IMG/VR virus record: IMGVR_UViG_3300021959_010405
Span: 32,001-96,000 of that record
DNA: 64,000 nucleotides
Source: a virus
Reading direction: 5' to 3' (one strand)
Below are positions 3,973 through 30,680 of the stretch, in pieces (position 1 is the first letter of the stretch; each line of letters opens with the position of its first letter). Under the pieces are notes generated by a model that saw nothing but the letters and a program-made list of their open reading frames with translations, had not been told where the DNA came from and searched no databases. Made by a program: the position numbers and the translations under genes.

Positions 3973-4000
3973 ATTATAAAGGAGATTAATAAAATCTCAA
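3973..4000 (-). promoter_or_regulatory. sigma70-like promoter TTGAGA-N16-TATAAT
   Basis: -35 at 3995..4000, -10 at 3973..3978; contains inverted repeat GAGATT-N5-AATCTC (3982..3998). Confidence 0.65.
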
Positions 4001-4049: not shown

Positions 4050-4346
4050 TTAGTCGTCGTGGCTAGCTCTCCATATGAGATCTTCCCACTTATTAAGGAG
4101 TTCACCCATCACAACTTGAATCTCTTCAAAGTCGCCATCATAGTTAAGTCCTGGGCCACCGCGGGTTTTATTGATATGTTTATTTAAATTGGATCCCTTT
4201 CTTAATACATTTGAAAGAGCGTCCACCGCCCTAGTAACATCATCTACCGACATATTGTTTAAGGCTTCGGCAAGGATTTTAAGCTTATACTCTTTAGCGC
4301 TTATTTTTTTATAATTTTCAAAAATTATTTTTGATTCATTATTCAT
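4050..4346 (-). CDS. hypothetical protein with MNxxSxxIFENYK leader
   Basis: TAAATA-N5-ATG and shared leader cassette. Confidence 0.7.
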   Translation of the reverse strand: MNNESKIIFENYKKISAKEYKLKILAEALNNMSVDDVTRAVDALSNVLRKGSNLNKHINKTRGGPGLNYDGDFEEIQVVMGELLNKWEDLIWRASHDD

Positions 4347-4378
4347 AATATTATTTAGTTGTTTGGGCGTTTTTTTTT
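4308..4378 (-). repeat. promoter+leader cassette copy A
   Basis: 9 mismatches over 69 nt versus copy C (18892..18960); includes TAAATA at 4352..4357. Confidence 0.85.
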
Positions 4379-4393
4379 AAATAAAAATAGTAT

Positions 4394-4786
4394 TTAAGCA
4401 TCGGCCATGCCTTGGCCTGCCATATCCATCCAGAGATGGTAAGCAAAAGTACCCTCTTCGTGAGGGTTGTTACCTTCAAGACCACCAGGCTTTGGGAGAT
4501 GGTATCCCATACCAGCGTCATAACCAAGACCGTATGCGCCGATAAAATCTTTGTGGTCGCGAGCAATCTTGTCAAACATCGCAAACTGCTTAAGGTCAAG
4601 CGGTTTCATACTTTGGTCAAAATCCTCTTTAGTTGCACTGATCCTCTTTGAATTGTCGAGAAGTTCCTGCATACCTTCTTCGTCAGTAGGGACTTCAATC
4701 GTAGACTCGGTAATGCCTTCAATCTTAGTCTCTTTATTGTTTATTTTTTTGTAATTTTCGAAAATTAATTCTGAGTCTTTATTCAT
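4394..4786 (-). CDS. hypothetical protein with MNKDSELIFENYK leader
   Basis: TAAATA-N5-ATG and shared leader cassette. Confidence 0.7.
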   Translation of the reverse strand: MNKDSELIFENYKKINNKETKIEGITESTIEVPTDEEGMQELLDNSKRISATKEDFDQSMKPLDLKQFAMFDKIARDHKDFIGAYGLGYDAGMGYHLPKPGGLEGNNPHEEGTFAYHLWMDMAGQGMADA

Positions 4787-4816
4787 AACATTATTTAGAG
4801 ATTTAGGTGTTTTTTT
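4748..4816 (-). repeat. promoter+leader cassette copy B
   Basis: 7 mismatches over 69 nt versus copy C; includes TAAATA at 4792..4797. Confidence 0.9.
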
Positions 4817-4856
4817 AAAAAAATAGTAATAATGTTTAAATTAACGACCGTAGTAT

Positions 4857-5237
4857 TTAATATATTCCGATCTCCTTAAGACCTTCTTCAATTTTGCTCT
4901 TGATAAAACTCTCTCCAACACCAGGATTGCGGCGAGCGATATCCCGAGTCTCGCTTTCGACAAAGTGAACAATGGACTCAACCGGAGCGTCGCCAGATTC
5001 AACAATTTCTGCTAGACTCTCAACTACGGACTCGATCTCGTTTTTAAGATCTTCGTTCATATCATATTTTTCTCTAATTTCAACAATACCTTTGCGAATA
5101 AAAGCTCCGGACTGAGGATCGATCCAATGAGCTTCAACAACAACCTTATCAGGAAGGTCGTTTTCAACTAATCTAGGAGCGACTGGTTGACCGCTTATAG
5201 GGGAAGGTATATTTACAGGTCGTACAAACTGATTCAT
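4857..5237 (-). CDS. hypothetical protein (possibly two fused small genes)
   Basis: TAAATA (5243..5248)-N5-ATG; internal in-frame Met at 5060. Confidence 0.65.
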   Translation of the reverse strand: MNQFVRPVNIPSPISGQPVAPRLVENDLPDKVVVEAHWIDPQSGAFIRKGIVEIREKYDMNEDLKNEIESVVESLAEIVESGDAPVESIVHFVESETRDIARRNPGVGESFIKSKIEEGLKEIGIY

Positions 5238-5285
5238 ACACTTATTTATGTAAAACTATGCAAATAACTTACTAATTTGGAGAAG

Positions 5286-7058
5286 TTAACGCCGACGACG
5301 ACCACGCCTTCTAGTCTCGTCATCAATATTCGGGTCCGAATCATTTAGCTTCTTTGGGCTCTTACCAGGATTGCTCGAGTCAACCCCGTCGTAGTTGTTA
5401 CCATGACCGTTATTTTGTTTAAGAGCTGCATCTTCCTCGTCAGTCAAATTTCTAGAGCAATCAATCGAGCCGACGTCAGTCTCAACCTCCTCATAAAAAC
5501 TGACCAGAAATGCTAGATCTTGAAGATCGAACCCACTGCTACTTACATCCGTATGGGTCAACTCGACCAAGTAAATCACATCCCTCGAGCCGATCTTTAT
5601 CCTACCTTCCGAATCGAGAAATGGCAGAAGGAAGGACTCGATCGAGGGCTGCTGATACAGGGGCGTTGTTGTCGGAGGGACATCACCATTCCGAAGGGCC
5701 CTTACATTTTGTGAAACCGAGCGGGAGTCGAACGTTGAACTCCAATACCCGTCATGGCGTACGTAGCGTCCACTGAAATCGAGAGTGTCTCCGCTAGCCA
5801 ACTTTGTCGACCAAACAATCTTGTTTGGATTAATACGATCATTCGTATCAAAGAAAAAGCTTTTTGAGGAACCTCCATTCTGACTCACCCTTCCTTGCGT
5901 AGGTACCCATTCCCAGTGAACAACTTTATCACGCCAATTCTTCCAAACTCTCTTAACAGAGGCGCCAAGTACCCTAACATCAGCGAAGACGCAACGATCA
6001 GCTCGGACCGTTCCTGTATTTTCAATGGACACAATATCCGAAACAGCCTCAGGAACAGTAACATTCCACGATAGTGTTGGGTGAGTACCCGCTTGAACTT
6101 GAGTCGGGCTAGCAATCAATGTACCAACGGGGATGATCGGAGATTCTTCCTGTCCCAACATTAAAGCTGGTACTGCTGTCAGCATAATGAATATTAAGGC
6201 AAATAATTTACTAATAGTATTATTTAAAACGCTTTTCATAAAGAAAACGTCATGCCATTTACTTTCTTGCTTAAGAATACCGTTAAGATTAAATTTTTCG
6301 CAGATATTTTTAAACGTCTTGAAGTTAGGCTCAAATTCTGCATCAGGAATCTGACTATCATAAAACTTATACTCATCTACCCACATCTCATTGTGACTAT
6401 TATCTAGATCAATAAGCTCTCTATTTTTATCAACAATATCTTGTTGTTCTTGTGTCAGTATCTTTTCTCCTTTGATAATAGCAAGAGCTCTTTTATTACC
6501 AAACCCCTCTACGCCTTCAATATTGTCTGACTTATCACCAACAATACACTTATACTCACAAAATCTATTCGGATGCATGCCATATTTCTCATACATTGTG
6601 GGAATATCAAACAATATCTTTTTAATTGGTGAAAATACTTTAGTTTCTGCAGAAACTAATTGTAAAAGATCTGTATCCGCAGAAATAATGACATTCTCGC
6701 CTGGAAGCTTTTTTGATAGCCAGAAAATAATATCATCTGCTTCACCTCTCTTAGGATATACATTAATAATACCTAGTGACTCAAATAGATTCTCAATAAC
6801 ACTGGTAAGTTCATGGACCTGCGCATTATATTCATTATCTCTTGTTTCCTTATACACAGAATCACCTTCCTTTCTGAAAGCTACCTCTGAACTCTTACGC
6901 ATATCCCATGCGCAGTATATCTTTGTTGGTTCAAACTTTTCTACATAGGATTTAATAGATGTCAACACAATAGAGAGGTGATTTACACCACCCCTACTAT
7001 TTGATACCCAGTAGGCTCTATGTACAAGATTATTACCGTCAATTATTAGATTTTTCAT
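5286..7058 (-). CDS. rnh: T4-type RNase H (5'-3' exonuclease) fused in frame to a secreted-type protein domain
   Basis: Start revised to MKNLIIDGNN (7058). Exonuclease motifs IDGNN, EADD, SADTDLLQL, GDKSDNIEG run to ~6200; then a hydrophobic segment and a GC-rich unrelated domain. Confidence 0.85.
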   Translation of the reverse strand: MKNLIIDGNNLVHRAYWVSNSRGGVNHLSIVLTSIKSYVEKFEPTKIYCAWDMRKSSEVAFRKEGDSVYKETRDNEYNAQVHELTSVIENLFESLGIINVYPKRGEADDIIFWLSKKLPGENVIISADTDLLQLVSAETKVFSPIKKILFDIPTMYEKYGMHPNRFCEYKCIVGDKSDNIEGVEGFGNKRALAIIKGEKILTQEQQDIVDKNRELIDLDNSHNEMWVDEYKFYDSQIPDAEFEPNFKTFKNICEKFNLNGILKQESKWHDVFFMKSVLNNTISKLFALIFIMLTAVPALMLGQEESPIIPVGTLIASPTQVQAGTHPTLSWNVTVPEAVSDIVSIENTGTVRADRCVFADVRVLGASVKRVWKNWRDKVVHWEWVPTQGRVSQNGGSSKSFFFDTNDRINPNKIVWSTKLASGDTLDFSGRYVRHDGYWSSTFDSRSVSQNVRALRNGDVPPTTTPLYQQPSIESFLLPFLDSEGRIKIGSRDVIYLVELTHTDVSSSGFDLQDLAFLVSFYEEVETDVGSIDCSRNLTDEEDAALKQNNGHGNNYDGVDSSNPGKSPKKLNDSDPNIDDETRRRGRRRR

Positions 7059-7296
7059 TTTTGTCGTATTGTTTTTTTGATACTTTATAGACATATCTTG
7101 GAACTCTTTCAACCATATTAACGATGCCAGATTCTATACCATCGTCAAATGTTTTACAGTCGATTGTTCTATTTTCCATTAATGGTATCGATAAAAAATT
7201 ATATTGAGGTTCCTTTTTTTCTTTTCCACAATATATCCACATTTCACCAGCATAACTACCAGTTTCAATTGCGTATATTTCTCTTTCTTTTGGCAT
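7039..7296 (-). CDS. hypothetical protein
   Basis: 85-aa ORF tightly packed in the operon upstream of rnh. Confidence 0.6.
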   Translation of the reverse strand: MPKEREIYAIETGSYAGEMWIYCGKEKKEPQYNFLSIPLMENRTIDCKTFDDGIESGIVNMVERVPRYVYKVSKKQYDKNEKSNN

Positions 7297-7297
7297 T

Positions 7298-7717
7298 TTA
7301 CAATTCCGGAGGAAGCTGTCGTGAAAAATATTTAGTTACAAGTTTTTGTAAGGACATTCCCAGAGCATCTGTTTCCATAGCTGATTTAGCCTTTATAATT
7401 TCAACCGGATCTCCGTTAAAATCAAAACCTATAAGTATAAAAGATGAAATAAACTCTTCAACAGTCGAAGATAATGCAATCTTACAATTCCTAGTATATT
7501 TTTTTTCCTTGGATACGTTTTTCAATGCTTCTACTAGCATCTCTTGAAAGACCTCTTCATCAACCCCGTCAATATCTTCTGAATCTATATAAATTTCGTA
7601 TTCTTCCTCCGGAAAGCTTTCAGACTTTTTTTTATTATTAGATATATCAGGTTTTTTCTTGTTCTTACTACCTTTGGGTCGTCCTCTTTTACGTTTCTTG
7701 GGGTTCTGATCCTCCAT
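7298..7717 (-). CDS. hypothetical protein with AT-hook-like motif
   Basis: KRKRGRPKGSKNKK followed by an acidic tract; TATAAATA 6 nt upstream. Confidence 0.7.
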   Translation of the reverse strand: MEDQNPKKRKRGRPKGSKNKKKPDISNNKKKSESFPEEEYEIYIDSEDIDGVDEEVFQEMLVEALKNVSKEKKYTRNCKIALSSTVEEFISSFILIGFDFNGDPVEIIKAKSAMETDALGMSLQKLVTKYFSRQLPPEL

Positions 7718-8072
7718 TAGATATATTTATATCAGAACCCTTAAAAAATCGACTTTTATCAGACGCAGATTGCTTGACCCCCGATGTAATGAGTTTTTCA
7801 ACGATAATTTCTATTGATGATGTCTTTAGCATAGTGTTTTTTGCAAACAATTTGCCCCCATCGTCGAAATGAAATACTACCTCGCCTTTAACGAATGGGT
7901 CATTCATACAAGTAATAAATAAGCTCGTGTCTCCAGGATCGACCAATATAGTCCATCTCCTAGGATCGTCTTTTTTATAGTCTTGGAAGATTCTTAAAAC
8001 AATAAAGTCATTGTCTCTAAGACGCTTTATGAAATATCCGGGCGTATAAATTTTGTTTTTTGTATTTTTCAT
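7689..8072 (-). CDS. hypothetical protein
   Basis: 127-aa ORF; start overlaps the clamp gene stop. Confidence 0.7.
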   Translation of the reverse strand: MKNTKNKIYTPGYFIKRLRDNDFIVLRIFQDYKKDDPRRWTILVDPGDTSLFITCMNDPFVKGEVVFHFDDGGKLFAKNTMLKTSSIEIIVEKLITSGVKQSASDKSRFFKGSDINISNGGSEPQET

Positions 8073-8800
8073 GCTACTACTGAAGTTACAATGTATTGTA
8101 AGATAGATTGATTTGTTGTAATTTTAAATTGAACGATACCATATTCATTATTAATGCTGACGTCAGTATTTAAATTAAGAGCAGAAAAAGAACGCACAGC
8201 ATCTAACATTAGAGGTATAGGTTCAGTTATCGGAGGGCCGTTATAATTATCTACAACGCAGAAGGTAAACATATCGCTGTTATCAATAGTCCTATCAGTC
8301 AATTCAGCATATATACTGTTTTCTTGCGTATAAAGATATATTTTATTAACATCGCCTGCGATTGAGGAGCTTTTAACGAGCTGATTGATAACTTGACTCT
8401 CTATTAGAAAATTAACATCATACTCGAACTCGTTAATTTTATCTAAATTAAGCTTAGGGACCGTAAGAATGCCATCTTCAAACAAATGAAATCTAAATTT
8501 AATATTATTTGATTTATATTGTATATTGTTTGAATTAATTTTAAGACTAACTTCATTATCATCAATAATTTTTAGTGAACTAACTAATTTATCAATATTA
8601 GGCACATTAATTTGAAATTCCTCTTCAACGTTAGAGGCTAACATATATTTTGAATATAATACTGTCGTATTATCTATCGATGATACTAAGCAACTTATTT
8701 CATTTCCGGAAACTTTAAGTATTGCGGTTTCGGAAAATCGATTTATAGGCTTTAAGAAATTTTGTATAAAGCCATCCTTGTCTTGTAGATTTAAATCCAT
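8069..8800 (-). CDS. gp45: DNA polymerase sliding clamp (gp45/PCNA-like)
   Basis: 243 aa with a two-domain alpha/beta pattern typical of clamps, in replication-gene context. Confidence 0.72.
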   Translation of the reverse strand: MDLNLQDKDGFIQNFLKPINRFSETAILKVSGNEISCLVSSIDNTTVLYSKYMLASNVEEEFQINVPNIDKLVSSLKIIDDNEVSLKINSNNIQYKSNNIKFRFHLFEDGILTVPKLNLDKINEFEYDVNFLIESQVINQLVKSSSIAGDVNKIYLYTQENSIYAELTDRTIDNSDMFTFCVVDNYNGPPITEPIPLMLDAVRSFSALNLNTDVSINNEYGIVQFKITTNQSILQYIVTSVVA

Positions 8801-9355
8801 TTACTTTTTTTTAGCGACCTTTTTAGTAGAGGGTTTAGTAGCTTTTTTCGCGGTAGGTCTTTTGACTGCTTGGAGCTCTTCCACTATAGATAATACCTTA
8901 TTAAGTTTATTATTCAACAAGTTAATTTCGCCTAAAATAATATTTGTCTGACCATTAGGTTCAGTAAAATCAAACTCTAATTGATCTGGATCGATTTGAT
9001 TTGTTACCGGTTGTACATTATTAGCTGGTTGTACATTATTAGCTGGTTGTATAGGTGGTTCAGTAACATTGCTTACTCCCTCAACGGGTTCAATTCCTAA
9101 ACTCTCCAGGGGCGCGTCGTATGGTATCATCTGCGCCGCTACATCTACCCCTCCCGGTAGACCATGAGGGAGCGTCTGGGAGGGAGTAGACGATGCAAAT
9201 TTGGCATCGATTTCGGAAGCTACTTTAGTTATTAAAGTTTCATTATTTTGCTTTGATACTGGGACTACAGTTCCAGAATCAATTTCCTTAGATTTATTCA
9301 TTATAGATCCAAGGAAATTTGCAATTGCTGCCTTTTCGTTTTGCGAATTATCCAT
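8801..9355 (-). CDS. hypothetical protein (start revised to 9355, MDNSQNEK)
   Basis: ATG directly follows the gp32 stop; the track's 9523 start overlaps gp32. Pro/Gln-rich with a basic tail. Confidence 0.65.
   Translation of the reverse strand: MDNSQNEKAAIANFLGSIMNKSKEIDSGTVVPVSKQNNETLITKVASEIDAKFASSTPSQTLPHGLPGGVDVAAQMIPYDAPLESLGIEPVEGVSNVTEPPIQPANNVQPANNVQPVTNQIDPDQLEFDFTEPNGQTNIILGEINLLNNKLNKVLSIVEELQAVKRPTAKKATKPSTKKVAKKK
9009..9050. repeat. 18-bp coding tandem repeat (QPANNV x2 plus partial)
   Basis: ggttgtacattattagct twice, then ggttgt. Confidence 0.85.
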
Positions 9356-9356
9356 A

Positions 9357-10223
9357 TTAATCATCGATACCAGCAAGAAGCTCAGCGACAATGGAATCAT
9401 CATCATCAGTAGCTGTATCTGTCGCTGCCGGTGCACTGTTTGTAACGGGCACTGTATTAACTGCAGGAGATGGGTTAGCTTCGTGAACCGTAGGAGTAGA
9501 ATAACTATCGGAAGATGATTCATTTACAAGATAGTGCTCTTGGAACATTTTTTCGAGCTCCTCGTATGACTTAACCTGAAAGACCTCGTCAAGTACATGT
9601 GTATTCTTGTAGATTTCTTCAATCCTACTATCAGATAACCCAAGATCGCTCTTCGACCCTGTAAACCGAGAAGAAACGTAGGTTGGATATTCACCCTGTG
9701 ATTCGACTTCAATTTTTAGACTAACACCGTTAGATCCAAGATCAAAAATACGAGGACCAAACTCATCACTATCCTCACCATCGATAGCCCTGCGGATAAT
9801 TTTATCTAGCTGCTTACCATAACGAATAATTTTAACTTCACCGTTATTATCCGGATTTTCAGTATCGTCTACTACATAGGCGTTAACAAGCCACTTTTCC
9901 GCACGACGGACAGATTTAATCTTCTCTTTTTCATCGTCAGTACCGTGTTTGTAAATACGATATCGCGCTTCTAGAATAGGGTCACGCTCTCCAAACGATT
10001 GAGGAGAAATAGACTGAACATATTGACCGGTCGCGAAAGACTCCCACCCAACTGTATAGTAGTGAAAGAAACTCTTTTCTGGAGCTTCCACGTTAGGCAG
10101 AAGCCTAACTGTATATGTATTGCCGGATTTCATAGAAAGAATATCGGCATAACTATTTCGCTCTTCTTGCTTAGAGAGAGCGCCTTTAATGCTATCAAAC
10201 ATAGATGAATTGAATGTACTCAT
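9357..10223 (-). CDS. gp32: single-stranded DNA-binding protein (gp32-like, no Cys)
   Basis: TVRLLP, KWLVNAYVVDD.ENPDNNGEVKI, acidic tail DDDDSIVAELLAGIDD. Confidence 0.85.
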   Translation of the reverse strand: MSTFNSSMFDSIKGALSKQEERNSYADILSMKSGNTYTVRLLPNVEAPEKSFFHYYTVGWESFATGQYVQSISPQSFGERDPILEARYRIYKHGTDDEKEKIKSVRRAEKWLVNAYVVDDTENPDNNGEVKIIRYGKQLDKIIRRAIDGEDSDEFGPRIFDLGSNGVSLKIEVESQGEYPTYVSSRFTGSKSDLGLSDSRIEEIYKNTHVLDEVFQVKSYEELEKMFQEHYLVNESSSDSYSTPTVHEANPSPAVNTVPVTNSAPAATDTATDDDDSIVAELLAGIDD

Positions 10224-10249
10224 ATTTTGTATCTTTATTATAGGTTATC

Positions 10250-10906
10250 TTAGGTTATTTTCAACTTGGTTTTTATTTGTTTTATTAGGTTGTTATATTT
10301 GCTAGAGTTTAAACATTTAGTTCTTGCAAAATCTATTCTATCGAAAAAGTCATCACCGCACATTAGCTTAGTAATATCTTTATCGCATTCTAAAATTATT
10401 GTATTAAATTCGGAAAAGGAAATTAGCGCATTTATCCAGGTTTTTCGCTCCATTAGGTGTAGGAGACATTTATACTGATTACCATCCTTTAGATTAAAAT
10501 ATTCCGTAATTGTTAATTTATTGTTGTTAATATAATCTCTTATAAAAACAAACGATTTAGCGGTCCGTGTTAGAGATTCGGCGCTGTCAGGGGAAAGAGA
10601 TTCTATATGCTTCATATACTTAACATAAGCATTCATGGCCTTTGCAGTTGTATAGAAATCTAAATTTACGTTTAAACTAGCATCCTCAAAAAATGGTGCA
10701 TAAAAAAAATCTTTAATATTTATATGAGGATATTTGAGTAATTTTTTAGATATAGCCTTGCATGGGACTAATTTATCTTCCGGAAAATTATCGAAATTTG
10801 TTCTCGCTTTCCAGGGCTTATTTTTTATCGAGCGTGTTGTAATTAGGTATTGGTTATAAACAGCTCGTTCATGCATTGTTATTTTATTACCTGCGATGGC
10901 GCGCAT
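10250..10906 (-). CDS. hypothetical protein (possible gp59-like helicase loader by position and size)
   Basis: Basic 218-aa ORF immediately upstream of gp32; function inferred from synteny only. Confidence 0.55.
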   Translation of the reverse strand: MRAIAGNKITMHERAVYNQYLITTRSIKNKPWKARTNFDNFPEDKLVPCKAISKKLLKYPHINIKDFFYAPFFEDASLNVNLDFYTTAKAMNAYVKYMKHIESLSPDSAESLTRTAKSFVFIRDYINNNKLTITEYFNLKDGNQYKCLLHLMERKTWINALISFSEFNTIILECDKDITKLMCGDDFFDRIDFARTKCLNSSKYNNLIKQIKTKLKIT

Positions 10907-11178
10907 TTATTTAAATATTTTGAAATATACTTACTTTTACTTAGTGTTGGATCGTATTCGATAAATCTCGCAAACGTATCGTAGTCATTATCGATACCCG
11001 TCATATATTGGAATAAATTTCTATAGTTTTTATTCTCCAATAATAATAAGAAAATATTCGGTAAATTCAACTTTTTATTATGTAAAATACAAATAAAACT
11101 ACAAAAACATAAAAGCAAATGATCGCTTTCTACAAAGTTTATACTGTCGATAGGGTTAAATTGATTTTTCGGGGTCAT
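10879..11178 (-). CDS. hypothetical protein
   Basis: 99-aa ORF; start overlaps the DHH gene stop. Confidence 0.55.
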   Translation of the reverse strand: MTPKNQFNPIDSINFVESDHLLLCFCSFICILHNKKLNLPNIFLLLLENKNYRNLFQYMTGIDNDYDTFARFIEYDPTLSKSKYISKYLNKCAPSQVIK

Positions 11179-12050
11179 ATTTTTTTAAGTTTTTTAGTAA
11201 AATTCATAAACTGTTCAGTAATATAACCTCCCGCTGATTCGGCATGCCCTCCCCCGTTCGCGAGTTTTTTCGCTATTTCATTCATAGGGAGTGTGCACTT
11301 ATCTGAACGTCTAAATGAAACTGTACCGCTGTTTGGGTTTACCACAATACCAATATCTGCGTTATATGTAGAAATAATATTTTTAGCTATATCATTAATA
11401 CCAAAACTAGCTATAGTTGAAACTACTCGACGAGGCTTTTCTCCAATATTAATATCCCCTACATGTATTTCTATTTTTGAAAGAATTTCTTTAAGTTTTT
11501 TATTATATATATTAATTGAATTTTTTTGCTGTCGAGAAAATCCTGAAAATCCGTTATGAAAACTATCAATAAATTTTTGAACCCTATCCCCAGTTAGACT
11601 CCAATAGAGTCTATTTAAATCCTCCGACATTGGATATTTTAGTTCGTTACTATCGTAGTCATCTATTAGATTTATAAGGAGTTTTTGCTCCTTAAATGCA
11701 TTAATAGAATCCTTATAAGTATCATATATTAATTTTGTAGTAGATCCGCACTTCTTAATAAGAGTATTGCATTTACTATATCTATTAGATTCTAAGATGT
11801 GAGTGTCATGATGATCTATAATGAAGATGTTCTTCTGATCTACAATATCAATGTTAGAGCTTACATCTAGATCACATATAAAAATTTTCTGAAAGTTATG
11901 ACCTTCATGACGATACCAATTTTCGAAATCCTTACGAAAATTACGAGATGTAGTTATTTTACTAGGCAATGTTCTTTTAGCGAACCAAGAAAGGGCTAAA
12001 ATAGAACCTACACCATCTAAATCTACATCTGACCAAACAAATAGCGACAT
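11175..12050 (-). CDS. DHH/DHHA1 family phosphoesterase
   Basis: DVDLDG, ICDL, IIDHH, GGGHAESAGG. Confidence 0.9.
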   Translation of the reverse strand: MSLFVWSDVDLDGVGSILALSWFAKRTLPSKITTSRNFRKDFENWYRHEGHNFQKIFICDLDVSSNIDIVDQKNIFIIDHHDTHILESNRYSKCNTLIKKCGSTTKLIYDTYKDSINAFKEQKLLINLIDDYDSNELKYPMSEDLNRLYWSLTGDRVQKFIDSFHNGFSGFSRQQKNSINIYNKKLKEILSKIEIHVGDINIGEKPRRVVSTIASFGINDIAKNIISTYNADIGIVVNPNSGTVSFRRSDKCTLPMNEIAKKLANGGGHAESAGGYITEQFMNFTKKLKKI

Positions 12051-12082
12051 TTACAATATAATTATATTAATTATTGTAATAA

Positions 12083-13414
12083 TCAACTATCGGTAAGCAT
12101 TCTTAAGCTACTATAAATATCGTTAGATTCGTCTGTTTCAGATATCATATCTTCTTCATCGAATTCGCTTAACGTTAAGGTAGTAAAGTCAATAGAAAAG
12201 CGATTAGACCCTACCGCTCTACCGAATCGATTTTTCATTATACCTGCATGTATTGTTTGAAATTCTATATCCTCTTCATCCTGCCATAATCCCATAATAA
12301 AGTCTGCAGTTGCAGCAACACCAACCGATTCAGATAAGCTATCAAGACCAGGATTATCTTCATCAAAACCACCACGATTTAGCTGAGTAGCGGTAATGAT
12401 AGGGCAGTTATAAATGTAACTCATAGCCCTAAGCTGCTCTGTTACATGCTTAACTCTTTCATATAGGTTTGTACCTGATGGTGAAGATAATAAGTTCAAA
12501 TAATCAATTACGATAGCATCAAATTTAATTCCTGACGATTGTAATTTTTTTATAAACCCTGACAATTGTTTAGGGGTAATAGTCGAAGGAGGAAACTCCT
12601 TTATATAAATTTTACGTCGAGGATTTTTCTCGTGTATCTTGAGCATATCGTTTTTCAACGCGGCAGAAGAATTAGCCAATTCAGATAAAGGTATAGCTGT
12701 AGCATTAGAGCATAATCTTCTTGCATAGATCATCTCCGACATTTCAAGAGATATAACTAGTACATTATTACCAGCTGCGGATATATTATTTGCAATATTT
12801 CCTAAGAATATACTTTTACCAACGTTAGGTCGGCCTGCATATATATAAATCGATCTACCGTCTCTCAAAAATCCTCCTCCAAGAGTTTTGTCCATCCACT
12901 CCCACCCGGATGAAATTACAGGCTCGACTTTATTAAGATCTTCAACAATACGATTAATGTCTGTAAATAATTCAATACCATGATCTGTAGTGAGATTTAC
13001 ATTACATGCTTTTTCAAATTTATCTAGAATTAAAGAGGTATCTGCACCCCCATCACCAACAGTCTTGGCTGTTTCAAGAAGAGTATTGTAGACATTACGT
13101 TCTTTAATAAACTGCTCTGTATTCAGTATTAACTCATCTTGATTATAATTAGTATCTAATTTACTAAATTCTTCTACTACGGACTTAAACGATGTTCGAA
13201 GATCGTCTGTAGTTAATAAAGCCTTTACCTCTGTAATATTAGGGCATGTATTATTGCGATCATGAAAATCAGAGATAATACTAATTATATCCTTAATGTT
13301 TTTATTTTCAAAAATATCAGGCTGTAAAAAATCAATTACAGATGTAAGATAACCTTCATTAGTTAGCGAATGGAAAAGAATAATCTTTTCCATAAATTTA
13401 TGATCTATCTTCAT
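12083..13414 (-). CDS. gp41: replicative DnaB-like helicase (gp41)
   Basis: Walker A GRPNVGKS, SLEM, IVIDY, TATQLNR, MKNRFG. Confidence 0.93.
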   Translation of the reverse strand: MKIDHKFMEKIILFHSLTNEGYLTSVIDFLQPDIFENKNIKDIISIISDFHDRNNTCPNITEVKALLTTDDLRTSFKSVVEEFSKLDTNYNQDELILNTEQFIKERNVYNTLLETAKTVGDGGADTSLILDKFEKACNVNLTTDHGIELFTDINRIVEDLNKVEPVISSGWEWMDKTLGGGFLRDGRSIYIYAGRPNVGKSIFLGNIANNISAAGNNVLVISLEMSEMIYARRLCSNATAIPLSELANSSAALKNDMLKIHEKNPRRKIYIKEFPPSTITPKQLSGFIKKLQSSGIKFDAIVIDYLNLLSSPSGTNLYERVKHVTEQLRAMSYIYNCPIITATQLNRGGFDEDNPGLDSLSESVGVAATADFIMGLWQDEEDIEFQTIHAGIMKNRFGRAVGSNRFSIDFTTLTLSEFDEEDMISETDESNDIYSSLRMLTDS

Positions 13415-13419
13415 ACAGT

Positions 13420-13935
13420 TTAAGCCGCGTGCTTAGTCCAAGTAGCGAAGGGCTTATCCATTTTATAATATAGTTGATATTTTTCAACTGTAGGAAGAGA
13501 TTCAAAATTTGGCAGCTGCCTGCAATTCATGGTTTGACTAATCGCTACTGCGAAGGGAGTAAGCTCACCATCAGGTATGTGAGAATTTCCTATGTTGCTA
13601 TCACACCATTCAATAAATGGTCTAGTGAAATGTTCCTTACCAGGCCATCTACGTAATCTCTCGTCACACATTTCGAGTGCATGATTTATAAGCCATTTCA
13701 TATTAGACTTTGACTCAACTACCCATTTGCTGCAAGGGTGATTGCGATGTCTTTTAGCTTGTTTTCGTGGCTGACCGGTCGCGGTCCTAGGACAATCCGG
13801 ATGCTCTAGTTGTTCCGTTGTAAAACAATACGCTAACATTTGACCAGACTCGATAATCATTTTCGATCTTATGTGTTTATCACACATAAGTCTTGCGGCT
13901 TCTTTAGGATTGCTATCAAGTACAAATATATTCAT
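13420..13935 (-). CDS. pyrimidine-dimer DNA glycosylase/endonuclease V-like family protein
   Basis: MNIFVLD...CDKH..KMIIESGQML, HRNHPCSKW, YQLYY; family recognised from recall. Confidence 0.72.
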   Translation of the reverse strand: MNIFVLDSNPKEAARLMCDKHIRSKMIIESGQMLAYCFTTEQLEHPDCPRTATGQPRKQAKRHRNHPCSKWVVESKSNMKWLINHALEMCDERLRRWPGKEHFTRPFIEWCDSNIGNSHIPDGELTPFAVAISQTMNCRQLPNFESLPTVEKYQLYYKMDKPFATWTKHAA

Positions 13936-13941
13936 ATAATG

Positions 13942-13969
13942 AATATAATTTCATATGAGAAATAATCAA
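13942..13969 (-). promoter_or_regulatory. sigma70-like promoter TTGATT-N16-TATATT
   Basis: -10 ends 6 nt before ATG 13935. Confidence 0.65.
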
Positions 13970-13983
13970 TTTTTTTTTCAAAT

Positions 13984-14676
13984 TTAAGACCACTTTTCTA
14001 AAAACCACTTTTTACCAGCTTCCCACTCATTATCCGGATTAGTTAATCCTGGTGATTTATGAACAATAGGAATATCCCATACTCCTATTTTCTTTTTATT
14101 TTTATTACATTCAAGCGAAAAATCTAAATCATAATAATGAAATCTAGATGGATTATCCTCACTAAATCTGCATGACTCTAACACGCTAGGTGTAGTTGCA
14201 ATAAATACCCCATCAATAAGTAACACTCTTTCGTTTAGAGGGCCGAATGAGGTGTACATATAGGGCATTATATTATTAGAATCGGGAGATAAGCAGTGAG
14301 CTACACAACCTCTCCTCGATTCTGGAGGACCCATTAAGTGCCAAAGACCATATTCTATATTTGATACAGTAGTTGTACCTGCTACACCTACAACATCAAA
14401 CTGCTCAAATGCCTTATCTAATTTTCGATCTATGTTACCACAATTTATATATACATCATCATGTACAAATACTATAGCTGTATTATCGTCGTAATATCCC
14501 AAGCTCTCATCAATAAATTTATTATATTGAGCTGATAGTGATTTATCATTTGTATCAAACCTATAAATGTCATAATTCAAATTAGGGCATTCCTTCGATA
14601 TACTTGTCTCTAGTAACGTTTTTTTACTAGATTTGTTTTTAGTACAGATTACGAAAGATATATTTGTGATACTCAT
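13984..14676 (-). CDS. glycosyltransferase, GT-A (GT2-like)
   Basis: FVHDDV DxD-type motif, IDGVFIA, FHYYDLDFSL. Confidence 0.8.
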   Translation of the reverse strand: MSITNISFVICTKNKSSKKTLLETSISKECPNLNYDIYRFDTNDKSLSAQYNKFIDESLGYYDDNTAIVFVHDDVYINCGNIDRKLDKAFEQFDVVGVAGTTTVSNIEYGLWHLMGPPESRRGCVAHCLSPDSNNIMPYMYTSFGPLNERVLLIDGVFIATTPSVLESCRFSEDNPSRFHYYDLDFSLECNKNKKKIGVWDIPIVHKSPGLTNPDNEWEAGKKWFLEKWS

Positions 14677-15371
14677 ATAAAGAAAGGGCTTTTATTTTTA
14701 AATTGTCCGACTAACACGGGACCTTTTGATGTTAACTCAAAAATCTTACCCTCTTTCAATTCTTCCCATTGGTTTTTACTATTAATAGAAGAAAAGTTCC
14801 CTCTATCGTCAGCAAACAATGTAGATCCCTGCCTCGCTATATAAACTTTTTTAGAATCGGTGTTGTATACCCAAACTGAAAATGTACCCTCAAGCTTAGC
14901 TAAAGCCTTTTCAATAGCAGTTACATGATTTACCTTTATTTTAGTAGATGATATGCTATTTGCCATGATAGGTATAAGTTTTGAATCAACTGATACTTTT
15001 ATACCATTGTTATATTCCTTAATTAAAGATTCCTGATTAGTAATCACTCCATTATGAGCAATTATCCATTCACCGATATGAAAAGGGTGTGTAGTCTCTT
15101 CACTCCATTTTCTATTAGACCCTGTAGGTGCTTGTAAATGACCTAAATATATATCAAACTTATCCGGTTCTAGTATTTTACTAATTTTATCTTGTTTACC
15201 TTCCCACCTCTTAACTTGGTATAGTTTTTTAATATTTTTTTTCTTGTTTGGAGAATAATTGAGTACATCATATATACCCATATAACTACCTCCCCACGCT
15301 CCTCTAATTTGATTCACGTCGTGAAGAACTTCAAACATTGATTTGTTAAAAGAACCAAATATCGCACACAT
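14673..15371 (-). CDS. class II (Ntn) glutamine amidotransferase-like protein, standalone
   Basis: N-terminal nucleophile MCAIFG, GHLQAPT, THPF, AHNGVI, VDS. Confidence 0.85.
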   Translation of the reverse strand: MCAIFGSFNKSMFEVLHDVNQIRGAWGGSYMGIYDVLNYSPNKKKNIKKLYQVKRWEGKQDKISKILEPDKFDIYLGHLQAPTGSNRKWSEETTHPFHIGEWIIAHNGVITNQESLIKEYNNGIKVSVDSKLIPIMANSISSTKIKVNHVTAIEKALAKLEGTFSVWVYNTDSKKVYIARQGSTLFADDRGNFSSINSKNQWEELKEGKIFELTSKGPVLVGQFKNKSPFFI

Positions 15372-15376
15372 AACCT

Positions 15377-15384
15377 TATTTATA
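15377..15384 (-). promoter_or_regulatory. late promoter TATAAATA
   Basis: Full T4 consensus, 5 nt upstream of ATG 15371. Confidence 0.7.
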
Positions 15385-15455
15385 AAAGAATTAGTTTAAA
15401 ACAAACTCCTCAAATTAATAATAAATATAATTCCTAAAAAATCCACTTGTTTGAA

Positions 15456-15461
15456 TAAATA
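15456..15461 (+). promoter_or_regulatory. late promoter TAAATA
   Basis: 5 nt upstream of ATG 15467. Confidence 0.65.
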
Positions 15462-15466
15462 TTTCT

Positions 15467-16942
15467 ATGAAGCCATGGCAAAATGATATTTTCAGCTTAT
15501 ATGTCGAACAAAGAGGTCGAGCAGGTCGCAATGTAGGTAAATACCACCCTAAATTAAAAGGAACTAGACAGGACGTTAGATCTGCAGGTCTTTCAGTTCC
15601 AAGTAGAGATGCTCCTAATTTTATTGCGACATTATTATATAATTTAGACATATTTGATGATGCAGAAGCTGACTCTATTATACGCGCGACATCATCTCCA
15701 GCACGGGGAGAGTCCTTAATGCAATCATTGGAGGCTCATTCCGACGAGATTATTAAACGTCAAGATGATATTTCTAATGCATACGAAGAGGAGTTAACAA
15801 AGTATGTAAATAGAGCTAAAATCAATAGAGGTCGTGGGGGTAAAGGTAGTAAAGGTCGTACAGAGAGATACGAAGCTCAGGCAGCTGCTATTGAAATAGC
15901 AAAGCAACAAAAAGAACTATTGAAGCAAATGAAGTCTCAAGGTGTTGATGCTGCTACGTCTATAGAGGATGCTATTTTAAATAGTATGGAGAGTACAAAA
16001 GACGAGACTCTAGTCTCTATGCAAATAAGAGGTCTTACAGATGCGGATGGTTTAATTGATACAATCGAAAAGTTAGGTGTTGATAAATCTGATATTGGCG
16101 TTGAAAGGGTTTCGGGGGGAGTTGTTGTAGATTTCTTTATATCGACAAATTCTCGTATAGGTAGGGATTTCGAAAGTATTCCTCCTACAGAAATTGATGA
16201 TATGTTTAGTAGATTTAGTTCCTCCGGTGAGGTTGTTGTGGAGGTTCTGCCTCCTGATGATATTGCTGATGCCATATCTGGTTTAAAATCAAGTTTATCT
16301 CAACCAGATAGAAAATCGAAAGGCGAAACTTACGACGAGCCAGAAAAGGAAGATAGCGAGGTAGAGTTTGACCCTAAAACATCGGGGGAAGTACCAACTG
16401 TTACGTCAGTAGATGATGATGAAGACTTTAGACCTACAGAAGATGATTTTGATGAGGTAGGTGTTGCATATGACCCGTCGTTTAGTCGTGAGGATGATTA
16501 CGACGTAGACTCGGAGGATATGAACTATGATCCAATGAACCCATATGATGAGGATCGGTTCGAAGATGAAGAGGGTGAGCGCGAATGCGAAGAATGCGAC
16601 GGAGAGGGAGGTAAAGAATATCCATATCAAGGAGAAATGGAATGGGAAACATGTAGATCTTGCAAAGGATCTGGTAAAACTAATCAACCATCACGCTACG
16701 GTGAAGATCGATATGAAAACGAAGAGGCAAAGCCAGATTATATTGATATCGATGGGGATGGTGACAAAGAGGAGCCGATGAAAAAGGCTGCTAAGGAGAG
16801 AGAAGAAGAAAACAATGAAGAAAATATCAATGAAGGGCACAAAATGTCACCCCAGCAAGCAAACCAATGGATGACTCAACAGCGAAACGAGAGAATGCGC
16901 AGTTATATGAAGCATGACGAGCGCTGGAAAGGATATTATTAA
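15467..16942 (+). CDS. acidic hypothetical protein, candidate head-internal/core protein
   Basis: Leader ending LYVE; D/E-rich C-half with CEECDGEG...CRSCKGSG and DIDGDGDKEEPMKKAAK. Confidence 0.75.
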   Translation: MKPWQNDIFSLYVEQRGRAGRNVGKYHPKLKGTRQDVRSAGLSVPSRDAPNFIATLLYNLDIFDDAEADSIIRATSSPARGESLMQSLEAHSDEIIKRQDDISNAYEEELTKYVNRAKINRGRGGKGSKGRTERYEAQAAAIEIAKQQKELLKQMKSQGVDAATSIEDAILNSMESTKDETLVSMQIRGLTDADGLIDTIEKLGVDKSDIGVERVSGGVVVDFFISTNSRIGRDFESIPPTEIDDMFSRFSSSGEVVVEVLPPDDIADAISGLKSSLSQPDRKSKGETYDEPEKEDSEVEFDPKTSGEVPTVTSVDDDEDFRPTEDDFDEVGVAYDPSFSREDDYDVDSEDMNYDPMNPYDEDRFEDEEGERECEECDGEGGKEYPYQGEMEWETCRSCKGSGKTNQPSRYGEDRYENEEAKPDYIDIDGDGDKEEPMKKAAKEREEENNEENINEGHKMSPQQANQWMTQQRNERMRSYMKHDERWKGYY

Positions 16943-16957
16943 TTTAAAAAAAAGATT

Positions 16958-18322
16958 ATGACTAATGATACAGATCTAATTTTTGAAAGATATTGCAATA
17001 TACAAGAAGGTATTTTTCAGCGAGGGAGAGCCAAACTAAACGCATTCGGTGAAACTGATGAAAGTCTTCAGAATTTAATTAACCAATATACAAAAAAAAT
17101 AGGTAAACATGTAGGAGATTTAGAAGCTGATTTAAAAACATTTAAAGGAAGTCTTCAGCCAATAACTCAAGAAAAAATGGCGATTTTACTTAATAATTTA
17201 AATAGCGCAGGAGTCGAAAGTGCTCAATCCGCACTAGGTAAAATAGGTCATATGTTAGGTAGATTCGTCGGCGCTGCAGCTCCTGCAGCTGCAGTCACTG
17301 CATTAGCTGCTGGTACTGGTGGTTTAGGTGGAATAGCTACTGGAGCACTCGCAGGCGCAACTCGAGGGCTTCAACGTAATTTAACTAGGACTGATATCGA
17401 TACTAAAAATAAATTTGGAAATGTTGCAAAAACTACCGCTGCCGGCGCTGCGATTGGAGGTGTAAGTGACTTTGTTGCAAGCAAGTTAGCTAATGCACCT
17501 GATGCAGGATTTGAACCAGCAGGGCCACCTAGCGAGTTAGCTAATGCACCTAGCGAGTTAGCTAATGCACCTGATGCAGGATTGGACCTAGCAGGTGCAC
17601 CTAGCGAGTTAGCTAATGCACCTGATGCAGGATTGGACCTAGCAGGTGCACCTAGCGAGTTAGCTAATGCACCTCTACAGGATACCATTGGTGCAATGCC
17701 GGAGTTACCTCCTATGAATCCCGACCTTTTCCAAAATTTGCACAATTCTTCGTATGATCCAAATAGTATAGTAGATCAGGCTAAGATGTTGTTGCAACAA
17801 CAGGCGGAGCAGCAAGGAATAACTGATCCAAACGAAATTGCTAATTTCGTTTATAGAAATGGTGGTATTGAAACTCTAGATAGTGTAGGGGCTGAGGAAA
17901 TTATTAATAACTTTAATTCTACAGTGGACCAAATTGCAAGTCAAGCTATTGAACCGGGAATCACGTTTTCGGAATTACCAACAGATCTTAAGTCTAGCGC
18001 GGAAGGTCTCTATAATCAAATGATAGAAAAGGGTTATTCAGCTGAAGATGCATCAAATGAATTGAGTGGCATTAATGATATATTCGCCGGCACTAAGAGG
18101 GTATCAGGAGATGACGCTGCCGTGGAAGTGGTTAAAGATTATGTAAAAGGAGTCGCTGAGGATATAGCCAGCCCAGGAACTTCTAATAACACTCTTAATG
18201 TACTTCAAAACGCGGCGAGGCGCGGCAGGCTGACTGATGAAATGAAACAACTTTTTCTTAATAAAGCTATAGAAAGAGGAGCTACTGACGGAGAGTTACA
18301 GGCTATTATGAATTTAAATTAA
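16958..18322 (+). CDS. hypothetical protein with glycine-zipper segments and 17-aa repeats, candidate ejected protein
   Basis: Leader MTNDTDLIFE; Ala/Gly hydrophobic stretch AAAVTALAAGTGGLGGIATGALAG. Confidence 0.75.
   Translation: MTNDTDLIFERYCNIQEGIFQRGRAKLNAFGETDESLQNLINQYTKKIGKHVGDLEADLKTFKGSLQPITQEKMAILLNNLNSAGVESAQSALGKIGHMLGRFVGAAAPAAAVTALAAGTGGLGGIATGALAGATRGLQRNLTRTDIDTKNKFGNVAKTTAAGAAIGGVSDFVASKLANAPDAGFEPAGPPSELANAPSELANAPDAGLDLAGAPSELANAPDAGLDLAGAPSELANAPLQDTIGAMPELPPMNPDLFQNLHNSSYDPNSIVDQAKMLLQQQAEQQGITDPNEIANFVYRNGGIETLDSVGAEEIINNFNSTVDQIASQAIEPGITFSELPTDLKSSAEGLYNQMIEKGYSAEDASNELSGINDIFAGTKRVSGDDAAVEVVKDYVKGVAEDIASPGTSNNTLNVLQNAARRGRLTDEMKQLFLNKAIERGATDGELQAIMNLN
17484..17674 (+). 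repeat. 51-bp coding tandem repeat (ANAPDAGLDLAGAPSEL)
   Basis: Three units plus a 21-bp sub-unit; the last two units are identical. Confidence 0.9.
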
Positions 18323-18338
18323 CCCCATTAATACATTA

Positions 18339-18893
18339 ATGAAAAAATATGACACAGATATTATTTTAGAGAAGCAATTATCACAAATTGATGAAGGTCT
18401 TCTAGATCGCATAAAAGCTAAAGCTTCTGGAGCTAAAGCTTTCCTCACAACTGACATGGGTAAAGGATTAGGTGGTATGAGTCAAAACTATCAAGAGACT
18501 GCCCAATCAAAGCTTATTGATAATAAGATTGAAAAAATACATAAAATTATATTAGATTTAGAAACAGATCTAATGAAAACTGCAGGAATGAGTACTGAGA
18601 CTTTAAAAAATCAATACCCTCAGATTTATCAGCAGTTACAGTTTTTAAGAAATTCAGTATCTCTTAACCCGCAACAACAGCAAGCCCCGCAACAACAGCA
18701 AGACCCGCAACAACAGCAAGACCCACAGCAACGCTCATTTAACCCCGGAGATGTAATTAAATACACTAGTACAAGAAACCCTCAAGGGGAGCAGGCTGAA
18801 GTTGTAGAGGTTTTGCAAAACGGAAATATACAGGTTAAGCCAGTAGGCAAATCTAATCCTGTTTTTGCTATATCCCCAAATCAAATTCTATAA
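18339..18893 (+). CDS. hypothetical protein, candidate head-internal protein
   Basis: Leader MKKYDTDIILE...IDEGLLDRIKAK; PQQQQ repeats; small beta-rich C-terminal domain. Confidence 0.75.
   Translation: MKKYDTDIILEKQLSQIDEGLLDRIKAKASGAKAFLTTDMGKGLGGMSQNYQETAQSKLIDNKIEKIHKIILDLETDLMKTAGMSTETLKNQYPQIYQQLQFLRNSVSLNPQQQQAPQQQQDPQQQQDPQQRSFNPGDVIKYTSTRNPQGEQAEVVEVLQNGNIQVKPVGKSNPVFAISPNQIL
18669..18731 (+). repeat. 18-bp coding repeat (PQQQQA/D x3)
   Basis: ccgcaacaacagcaag(c/a)c three times. Confidence 0.85.
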
Positions 18894-18960
18894 AAAAACA
18901 CCTAAAGACCTAAATAATATTATGAATAAAGACTCAGAATTAATCTTTGAAAATTATAAA
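18892..18960 (+). repeat. promoter+leader cassette copy C
   Basis: aaaaaaacacctaaagaccTAAATAatattATGaataaagactcagaattaatctttgaaaattataaa. Confidence 0.9.
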
Positions 18961-19644
18961 TCTATAAATGTAAAACAGTTAATGCTCGAATCATCTTTTG
19001 ATACATTTGAGCGAAACGCGCCTAACGTAAATACTCTAGAAGAGGCGTATGCAATTTTAGATATATATGAGATGTTAGAGGAAGCTGGGTTTTTTGGAGC
19101 TGTAAAAAATGTAGCTCGAGGGGCTGGTAATACCTTAAAGGCAGGAGCTACTAAATTAAAAGCCGGAGCTCAACAAGTCGGTGACGTGGTAAAATCGGGA
19201 GCTCAACAAGCTGGTAGTGCCTTAAAGGCAGGAGGTGCTGGATTGGCAGCTGGAGCTCAACAAGTTGGTTCAAATGTAGCCGATATGGCCCGGACTGGAG
19301 CTGCCGTCTCGCAAGGTCAACAAGTAATTAAACAAGCCGCTACAGCTGCACAACAAATTATTGATCTCGTAAACAAAGCAAAGCAAATCTCTCCAGAAAC
19401 ATTCACAGGCTCGCAAGGTCGTGAGCTCGCTCAAAATATATCAAATCTTCCGCTTATAAAAATAATGGATTATTTAGATGAACTAGCTGCAAATACCACC
19501 GCTGCAGCTACGGCCGCTAGTGATAAAGGAATATTTGGAGGGGCCGGCGCTGCTGCAAAGCAGGCCGCTTCTAATGAATATCAACAATCTCAGCAAGCAG
19601 CACAACCAGCAGCACAACCAGCTGCAGCTGCTCAACCAGCTTAA
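18922..19644 (+). CDS. Ala/Gly/Gln-rich amphipathic-repeat protein (start revised to 18922)
   Basis: TAAATA-N5-ATG; MNKDSELIFENYK leader; AGAQQ repeats. Confidence 0.75.
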   Translation: MNKDSELIFENYKSINVKQLMLESSFDTFERNAPNVNTLEEAYAILDIYEMLEEAGFFGAVKNVARGAGNTLKAGATKLKAGAQQVGDVVKSGAQQAGSALKAGGAGLAAGAQQVGSNVADMARTGAAVSQGQQVIKQAATAAQQIIDLVNKAKQISPETFTGSQGRELAQNISNLPLIKIMDYLDELAANTTAAATAASDKGIFGGAGAAAKQAASNEYQQSQQAAQPAAQPAAAAQPA

Positions 19645-19649
19645 TAAAT

Positions 19650-30234: not shown

Positions 30235-30680
30235 AAATCACTATCGTAAAAGTCACCTTCTTCTAGATTAGATATATTTTTTGTATAAACTTTACCGTCG
30301 CTGGAATCAATCATATGTCTTTCGTAAACTTCTTCGCGATATTCGGTTTCTGCTTGATGCAATCTTTTTTCCTTTTTAATTCTATTAATAAACGATCTAA
30401 AAGCTATAGTAGTAAAATAGGAGAAGGGATTATATTTTGATGTTACATCGAAATTTTTATTTTTTAAAGCTGCATACATCTTCACGATTGCATCACCTAC
30501 CATCTCATCTCTATACGTATAATCTTTAAATTTAGAATTGTAGCTTAAGCCTGTCGCTATTTTATTAATGCATTCTCCGAGATAATCTTCGAATTTATCG
30601 CTTTGATAGAAACGGGCTATTGCATCCTTAAACTCTTTAGGTTCTACATAATAATTGCTCTTATCTTTAGTCTTTGCCAT
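30231..30680 (-). CDS. gp55: late-transcription sigma factor gp55
   Basis: IATGLSY...F..YTYRDEMVGDA...NPFSYFTTIAF.SFINRIKKEK. Confidence 0.9.
   Translation of the reverse strand: MAKTKDKSNYYVEPKEFKDAIARFYQSDKFEDYLGECINKIATGLSYNSKFKDYTYRDEMVGDAIVKMYAALKNKNFDVTSKYNPFSYFTTIAFRSFINRIKKEKRLHQAETEYREEVYERHMIDSSDGKVYTKNISNLEEGDFYDSDL

Follow-up and report, generated by a model that had tools for sequence, protein, structure and literature searches.

A late-promoter and leader cassette shared by unrelated genes of a marine T4-like phage encodes a candidate capsid-targeting peptide

The stretch of DNA analysed here, referred to as the window, comprises 64,000 nucleotides (nt), bases 32001-96000 of the 117,429-bp viral record IMGVR_UViG_3300021959_010405 (35% G+C), and carries three copies of a cassette of about 70 nt that places a late-promoter box, a start codon and a 13-codon leader in front of three different genes. 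Copy A (4308..4378, minus strand) consists of an A-run, CGCCCAAA, a CTAAATA box at 4352-4358, a 5-nt spacer, the ATG at 4344-4346 and 13 codons that read MNNESKIIFENYK. Copy B (4748..4818, minus strand) repeats this layout with an A-run, CACCTAAA, the box at 4792-4798, a 5-nt spacer, the ATG at 4784-4786 and 13 codons that read MNKDSELIFENYK, while copy C (18890..18960, plus strand), which begins at the stop codon of the preceding gene, has its box at 18910-18916, the same 5-nt spacer, the ATG at 18922 and again the 13 codons MNKDSELIFENYK. The genes that start in these cassettes are gene A (P0001, 98 amino acids (aa), 4050..4346, minus strand), gene B (P0002, 130 aa, 4394..4786, minus strand), which has a conserved C-terminal domain, and gene C (P0003, 240 aa, 18922..19644, plus strand), whose product is A/Q/G-rich and of low complexity. 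The source of the record is an uncultured, distant marine T4-like phage (the focal phage). Its genes include those for a UvsX recombinase, gp46/47-like nuclease subunits, DnaB, a primase and QueC, its family-B DNA polymerase is ~30% identical to the cyanomyovirus counterparts, and megablast of 25 kb together with tblastn of proteins P0003 and P0010 against deposited phages returned no match.

A preliminary description of this DNA, made from the letters alone, had placed three copies of the cassette at these positions, and its difference counts proved exact: B and C differ at 7 of 69 nt and A and C at 9 of 69, to which 12 differences between A and B can be added. In the 30 non-coding nt these pairs differ at 4 (B-C), 4 (A-C) and 6 (A-B) positions, and in the 39 coding nt at 3, 5 and 6, respectively, so that within the focal genome the non-coding part is, as had been said, about as conserved as the coding part. 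A degenerate 51-nt pattern allowing up to three mismatches matches only the three copies in the window and nothing in 100 shuffles, and at the DNA level the whole 117-kb record holds no cassette copy beyond these three. The statement that similarity stops at codon 13 needs refinement. The three proteins are indeed unrelated further on, beyond about residue 23-36, but the similarity tails off gradually, reaching to about residue 23 between B and C (17/23 identical) and to about residue 36 between A and B (16/36).

At the protein level the family is larger. Scanning the entire record with a relaxed N-terminal motif yields exactly five genes, namely A, B, C and two open reading frames (ORFs) immediately upstream of C on the plus strand: a 454-aa gene (16958..18322) with the diverged leader MTNDTDLIFERY, and a 184-aa gene (18339..18893) with the diverged leader MKKYDTDIILEK, which is one residue longer. 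The three tagged genes first described are thus real, but these two diverged copies had been missed, and by sequence the record holds at least five tagged genes. In the 454-aa protein, tandem PSELANAPDAGLDLAGA-type repeats come after a hydrophobic stretch rich in G and A, and this hydrophobic part weakly matches the tagged 435-aa protein of L009 (29% over 109 aa). The first gene of this late-gene island, a 491-aa ORF at 15467..16942 (plus strand), has a late promoter 5 nt before its ATG and starts with MKPWQNDIFSLYVEQR, which resembles the variant MRKTDIDMFSKYVESR of locus L014; it may be another carrier of a variant leader. On its other side the island is flanked by queC (19650..20411, minus strand).

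The promoter part of the cassette is in general use in this genome. The sequence TAAATA lies 5-7 nt ahead of the ATG of about 33 genes genome-wide, at exactly 5 nt in 21 of them, and these include tail-fibre, baseplate and protease genes, with which the tagged genes share the box at 5 nt. The phage also encodes a homologue of the late sigma factor gp55 (30231..30680, minus strand; E = 6e-11, 37% identity), which in T4 reads TATAAATA-type late promoters. Because the box precedes about 33 starts and a gp55 homologue is encoded, CTAAATAATATT-ATG is the ordinary late promoter of the focal phage. The T4 late promoter box spans positions -13 to -6, and by this geometry transcription would begin at the AUG or beside it; the late mRNAs probably have little or no untranslated leader. 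Examples with TAAATA at 5-7 nt occur in the window at 1157, 4857-5237 (minus strand), 15467, 32592, 37792, 38139, 46421 and 63078. A distance of 5-7 nt leaves no space for a Shine-Dalgarno sequence, and in some relatives the spacing between box and ATG is 11 nt.

Upstream of the box, the cassette contains a sequence of its own, an A-run followed by C(A/G)CC(T/C)AAA. The 30 non-coding nt are identical at 24-26/30 positions among the three copies, against a mean of 15.1/30 and a maximum of 21/30 for other late genes with the same spacing. Over 30 unique genes of the clade, only the TAAATA box is conserved in the upstream region. RNA folding of the three cassettes gave no significant structure (z -0.7, -0.6 and +0.9), no terminator-like site was found within them and sigma-70-like sites are not above the level of shuffles. 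Since relatives conserve only the box and the cassettes have neither a significant fold nor a terminator, the extra non-coding identity is best taken for the trace of a recent conversion tract rather than for a functional element.

What is conserved across the clade is the peptide. The leader consists of ten residues, M-N-K-D-S-E-L-I-F-E, followed by N-Y-K, and its consensus M-N-x-D-S/T-x-L-I-F-E-N/A-Y is common to an uncultured clade of T4-like phages. When IMG/VR was scanned for M-N-x5-I-F-E-N-Y, eight further viral contigs (30-41% G+C) were identified; in all eight the matching residues open an ORF that is preceded by a TAAATA box and has a body of 123-455 aa, while chance matches of the scan have neither the ORF start nor the box. 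With queC as anchor, 80 related loci were collected, 29 of which have tagged genes starting M-[NQ]-x-D-[ST]-x-L-I-F-E-[AN]-Y in the adjacent slot, the content of which varies. After removal of their first 16 residues, the 35 unique tagged proteins group into 19 payload clusters that are unrelated to one another. Over 30 unique genes in the same register, the codons for D4, I8, F9, E10 and Y12 vary only at the third position, E10 is invariant and I8 is kept in 28/30. Because the conserved residues change only at third codon positions, the pattern indicates that selection acts on the leader peptide. Tagged genes number five in the focal record, six in a 199-kb relative (four in tandem) and three in a 185-kb relative. 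At another locus (L019:9910-10582, minus strand), two tagged genes lie side by side, a late promoter preceding each, and in one of them Ser replaces Glu10 (MNKDSKTIFSNY); by the T4 rule this variant would be targeted but not cut there.

In T4, the proteins found inside the head all enter the prohead core through a capsid targeting sequence (CTS), and their propeptides are then removed by the gp21 protease (PMC5694885). The first ten residues suffice for packaging; residues 4 and 7 of the CTS govern targeting and residues 8 and 10 processing, and propeptides have 10-19 residues (PMC9026906; the underlying work of Mullaney and Black, 1996, and Repoila et al., 1994, is cited here through PMC9026906, PMC3012670 and PMC12373910). 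T4 ipII and ipIII start with MKTYQEFIAE|A, Alt with MELITELFDE and ipI with MKTFKEF...ITE|A. The I8-F9-E10 end of the leader fits, at the sequence level, the (L/I)-x-E rule of the T4-type prohead protease (PMC9026906; PMC5694885). The leader is probably this lineage's version of the T4 CTS, and most likely, judging from sequence, the focal cassette tags at least five unrelated proteins for loading into the capsid as occurs with the T4 internal proteins.

The machinery that such a system requires in T4, a prohead protease, a gp22-type scaffold core and the gp23 capsid protein, is present in the focal phage. Its head module, located outside the window, encodes a gp20 portal, a Peptidase_S77 prohead protease (PF03420, E = 5e-28), a putative scaffold (G000 107137-108033) and a gp23 capsid protein extended by ~100 residues at its N-terminus, with PF07068 (E = 3e-89) and PF07230 (E = 3e-95) matched in the same genome. 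The scaffold is assigned by position only in the focal genome, and T4_CASP is confirmed in the relative L031. Among the records that carry the leader, all those with a completeness of 88% or more encode S77. The focal protease gene (G000 106285-106962, L003:11285-11962) gives a protein with the N-terminus ...DEFEYIFE|EK, which resembles the cargo leader DSELIFE|N, and relatives (L027, L028) have EFEYI[FVL]E|E; this motif occupies the position at which T4 gp21 has its proposed LIE-9 autocleavage site (PMC9026906). Because the protease's own N-terminus carries a similar motif at that position, I-F-E is a plausible substrate motif for the protease in this lineage. A short motif resembling the leader's IFEN is also shared by the propeptides of the focal capsid protein (G000 108102-109598, L003:13102-14598) and of T4 gene 23 (L020:4946-6511): KIFENQE in T4, IMLENQE in the focal phage and LLENQE/ILENQE in relatives. 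The probable capsid maturation site is LLME|SSYGG in the focal phage versus FLTE|AEIGG in T4. The focal interval between portal and protease genes (G000 102532-106235, L003:7532-11235) holds two genes, of 391 aa and 205 aa, that match connector/neck proteins in PHROGs; in Pfam, the 205-aa product also matches a TnsA-like endonuclease N-terminal domain. The interval is devoid of small core genes, and the order of head genes departs from that of T4.

In the proposed model, the tagged proteins would be made late in infection from the promoters described above. The leader would then bind the scaffolding core of the assembling prohead, so that the proteins become enclosed in the capsid, and Peptidase_S77 would cut after the Glu of I-F-E to free the mature body inside the head. 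The bodies would form a small, fast-changing protein set, with five members here and three to six in relatives. The preliminary description had proposed a portable unit of late promoter, start codon and head tag, and in these elements it is supported indirectly by the protease, the sigma factor, the I-F-E end, the conservation in the clade and the slot that payload homologues occupy in other phages.

Several points weigh against this interpretation. Targeting, cleavage and delivery to the host are read from sequence only, and the leader, with 4/10 residues identical to IPIII, is too short to prove homology to the T4 CTS. The focal tagged genes sit in the replication region and not in the head module. 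No payload function is recognisable: Pfam and PHROGs searches with more than 20 tagged proteins gave no usable family match, and Foldseek searches against BFVD together with ESM Atlas searches gave no usable fold or named embedding neighbour for the payloads. The AlphaFold model of P0002 has a predicted local distance difference test score of 67.6 and is confident only at residues 80-130. The patterns used to collect tagged genes demanded some of the conserved residues, which makes the estimate of conservation partly circular; this circularity is not total, as D4, E10 and Y12 are invariant or nearly so even where the patterns permitted alternatives. Finally, the record is ~55% complete according to CheckV, so that every copy and gene count is a lower bound.

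An alternative that keeps the prohead as destination concerns the fate of the payloads, and it arises from their homologues. The body of gene A is 56% identical (E = 4e-27) to a 90-aa gene located between portal and protease genes in L031, where it has another leader (MEDFNKKHDSLAEAAKEILDEN). Homologues of the gene B body carry the same leader, the diverged leader MDKESNLIWESY, an unrelated module of ~55 aa (M..IQ.LI.AV.LGDK...) or MK[ST]FDN.HD.LA.AAKEILE|GN, and in marine T4-like contigs at least three other N-terminal modules precede its C-terminal domain. In contigs with the canonical T4-like order, the gp20 portal and S77 protease genes enclose these payload A and B homologues, and the T4_CASP scaffold and gp23 come next; this portal-protease slot is occupied in T4 by the core genes 67 and 68. 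By sequence, two of the three payloads thus belong to families that are head-module genes elsewhere. The genes of these portal-protease clusters share a leader family of their own ending in EI[LF][ED], and their middle and C-terminal segments are shuffled among them. Mosaic clusters of this type are seen at L031:4982-7244 and in L029-L043; one cluster has the payload B C-terminal domain in two genes, of 247 aa and 203 aa, and the middle segment SAEVTISVDNVALTE is found after either of two distinct N-terminal modules. In the cultured pelagiphage Mosig the portal-protease slot contains five small unnamed genes.

Because their homologues occupy this slot, payloads A and B may equally well be prohead-core or assembly proteins of the gp67/gp68 sort and not injected effectors. 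Taken to its full extent, this alternative holds that the leader does target the prohead but that the tagged proteins are components of core assembly, degraded or retained, rather than injected or anti-defence cargo. We consider it unlikely. In its favour, the homologues are exactly at the position of T4 genes 67 and 68, payload B is fused in some relatives to a module that weakly matches T4 gp67 via phage C48C1 (E = 0.003), P0003 is A/Q-rich and of low complexity as expected of a scaffold-like protein, and T4 IPIII itself affects head assembly (PMC9026906). Against it, the gene content varies more among close relatives than would be expected of an essential core, with two island genes missing in L125/L126 and the A/B slot empty in L048/L054, Pfam GP67 misses the marine proteins, pairwise tests against gp67 are empty for two of three, and several payloads have G/A-rich hydrophobic segments more typical of ejected membrane-active proteins. 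The A/Q/G-rich and hydrophobic compositions would fit either scaffold-like or ejected membrane-active proteins. Homology of the ~55-aa module to gp67 was considered and set aside, as it amounts to a likeness by eye: BLASTP returned nothing for two of three proteins (P0010 and the Mosig protein) and E = 0.003 for the third, which leaves positional equivalence only, and among the proteins tested Pfam GP67 (PF17634) matches only T4 gp67 itself.

A destination other than the capsid is quite improbable. The shared N-terminus could be a tag by which some other partner recognises these proteins, be it a modifying enzyme, a chaperone or a destination in the tail or membrane, and many tagged genes in the clade adjoin queC and the amidotransferase gene. 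However, this linkage is partly an artefact of having gathered loci with queC as anchor, the amidotransferase/queC pair is accounted for by 7-deazaguanine DNA modification, and where tagged genes were located without an anchor, their neighbours vary and no enzyme is constantly beside them. The leader is acidic and hydrophilic, unlike a secretion signal, and the head is indicated by the hydrophobic-x-Glu end at residue 10, by the co-occurrence with S77 and by the position of payload homologues between portal and protease. That the conserved 5' end acts at the nucleic-acid level, in the initiation of leaderless late mRNAs, or is a functionless recent duplication is scarcely credible, because, although first codons could matter for initiation when the promoter lies 5 nt from the ATG and mRNAs probably start at or near the AUG, and although coding and non-coding parts are about equally conserved within the focal genome, the third-position changes in the 30 unique genes speak for selection on the peptide, about 28 other late genes with the same promoter spacing have no leader, the cassettes show no significant RNA structure, and the persistence of the leader across genomes of 30-41% G+C with unrelated bodies cannot be explained by recent duplication.

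Whatever the fate of the tagged proteins, the candidate targeting cassette has itself been a site of recombination. In the closest relatives (L125/L126, with queC 74-76% identical), the queC island consists of two genes, orthologues of ORF 15467 and of gene C, and ORFs 16958 and 18339 are absent from it. The gene C orthologue (218/224 aa, 50% identical, E = 8e-54) starts with MKYISYNDQELLSESY or MKYISYNDQELLSESYNSINVKQ. Across the cassette, copy C is identical to B at 63/71 positions versus 35/71 for the orthologue, whereas over the next 99 nt the relation is reversed, with 40/99 identities to B versus 63/99 to the orthologue. Because the cassette resembles that of B while the downstream DNA resembles the orthologue, copy C is, from this comparison, a chimera in which a B-type cassette is joined to the body at codon 13/14. 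The simplest cause is conversion of a pre-existing, diverged leader by a B-type cassette. Recombination at the cassette, as proposed in the preliminary description, is thereby supported for copy C, with a breakpoint at codon 13/14.

Genes A and B, at the second locus, lie between the DNA primase gene (2931..3965, minus strand) and an ORF at 4857..5237 (minus strand). In L048/L054 only 17 nt separate the homologue of this ORF from the primase gene, so that the A/B slot is empty, and no tagged gene is found near primase in 80 syntenic loci collected with primase as anchor. Because of this 17-nt junction and the 80 primase loci without a tagged gene, the comparison identifies genes A and B as an insertion in the focal phage. 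Between the end of gene A and the start of the primase gene there is a near-consensus sigma-70-type promoter (3973-4000, minus strand; TTGAGA, 16 nt, TATAAT; 11/12), which is probably the early or middle promoter of primase, preserved downstream of the inserted pair.

These events suggest how the cassette could move. The ~70 nt shared at the 5' ends of the genes would serve as a homology patch for the phage's own recombination system, by which copy C would have gained a B-type cassette through conversion and genes A and B would have been placed in a new slot beside primase. The preliminary description had foreseen that a fixed pairing of the copies with the same genes in relatives would speak against a portable cassette; the leader is instead found in front of different genes in relatives, payloads carry other leaders and the A/B slot is empty. 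The capture of foreign DNA at the cassette, the further step proposed there, is something that we infer. The slot between queC and the gene for a class-II glutamine amidotransferase (window 13984-20411; L125-L204) is a hot spot at which one to four late genes lie on the opposite strand, with a content that differs even among close relatives. It is a tentative idea, and a doubtful one, that the cassette constitutes a self-contained, recombination-competent expression and packaging unit, a late counterpart of the PeSLs, which are mobile regulatory cassettes of the T4-type phages RB49 and phi1 (Arbiol et al., 2010; PMC2839356), and that it supports an integron-like exchange of virion cargo at hot spots such as the slot adjacent to queC. 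If this were true, any ORF recombining into the cassette would at once acquire late leaderless transcription and capsid loading.

The interest of the system lies in what the tag would reveal. If it works as in T4, it marks the proteins of an abundant, uncultured marine T4-like group that ride inside the capsid and probably enter the host together with the DNA, and in T4 this class of internal proteins turned out to consist of specific inhibitors of host restriction enzymes, Ip1-3 being inhibitors of GmrSD enzymes (PMC12373910). The leader consensus provides a simple sequence handle for listing such cargo in metagenomes, and in the present set it already covers 19 unrelated families. Moreover, the chimeric copy C is a clean natural example of a promoter-plus-leader unit used as a crossover site.

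Elements of the arrangement are known from other phages. As with PeSLs, a conserved 5' cassette (~70-100 nt) of variable, non-essential genes acts as a patch of homology for recombination, and genes move with their own expression signals, use as a crossover site being seen in copy C and in the A/B insertion. PeSLs, made up of a sigma-70-type early promoter and a G+C-rich stem-loop terminator, lie wholly outside the coding sequence, whereas the focal cassette has a late promoter in place of an early one, lacks a significant structure or terminator and includes 13 codons. In the giant phages phiKZ and SPN3US, paralogous ejection proteins share identical N-terminal residues with a small-x-Glu motif, and their propeptides are thought to direct incorporation into the prohead (PMC5694885). 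These propeptides are mostly longer than 100 residues and are processed by an S80 protease at an A/S/G-x-E motif, in contrast to the ten-residue leader, S77 protease and I-F-E end of the focal phage. The T4 proteins gp67 and gp68 have the same portal-protease position as the homologues of payloads A and B in canonical marine phages but no reliable sequence homology, and, unlike in T4, the corresponding focal slot holds neck-type genes and the tagged genes are elsewhere.

The closest parallel is the T4 internal-protein system. There too, one short propeptide ending in hydrophobic-x-Glu is found on otherwise unrelated proteins, gene content varies between relatives and an S77 protease is present. 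The IPII/IPIII propeptide has the same length as the focal leader and shares with it M1, E6, I8 and E10, plus a hydrophobic residue 7. At the DNA level, T4 ipII and ipIII are identical at 15/15 nt upstream and at 32/33 nt over codons 1-11, and then at 17/57, an architecture like that of the focal cassette. The systems differ in the leader itself (MNxD[S/T]xLIFE[N/A]Y versus MKTYQEFIAE), in the late promoter, which in the focal phage abuts the ATG with no Shine-Dalgarno region (the ribosome-binding site of T4 ip genes is a normal one), and in the payloads, which in T4 are small basic proteins and in the focal phage are in several cases A/Q/G-rich or endowed with hydrophobic segments. No paper describing a CTS in marine T4-like phages was found. 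In all, the arrangement is most likely the CTS/internal-protein principle of T4 in a distant lineage, and it extends this known principle rather than adding a new one.

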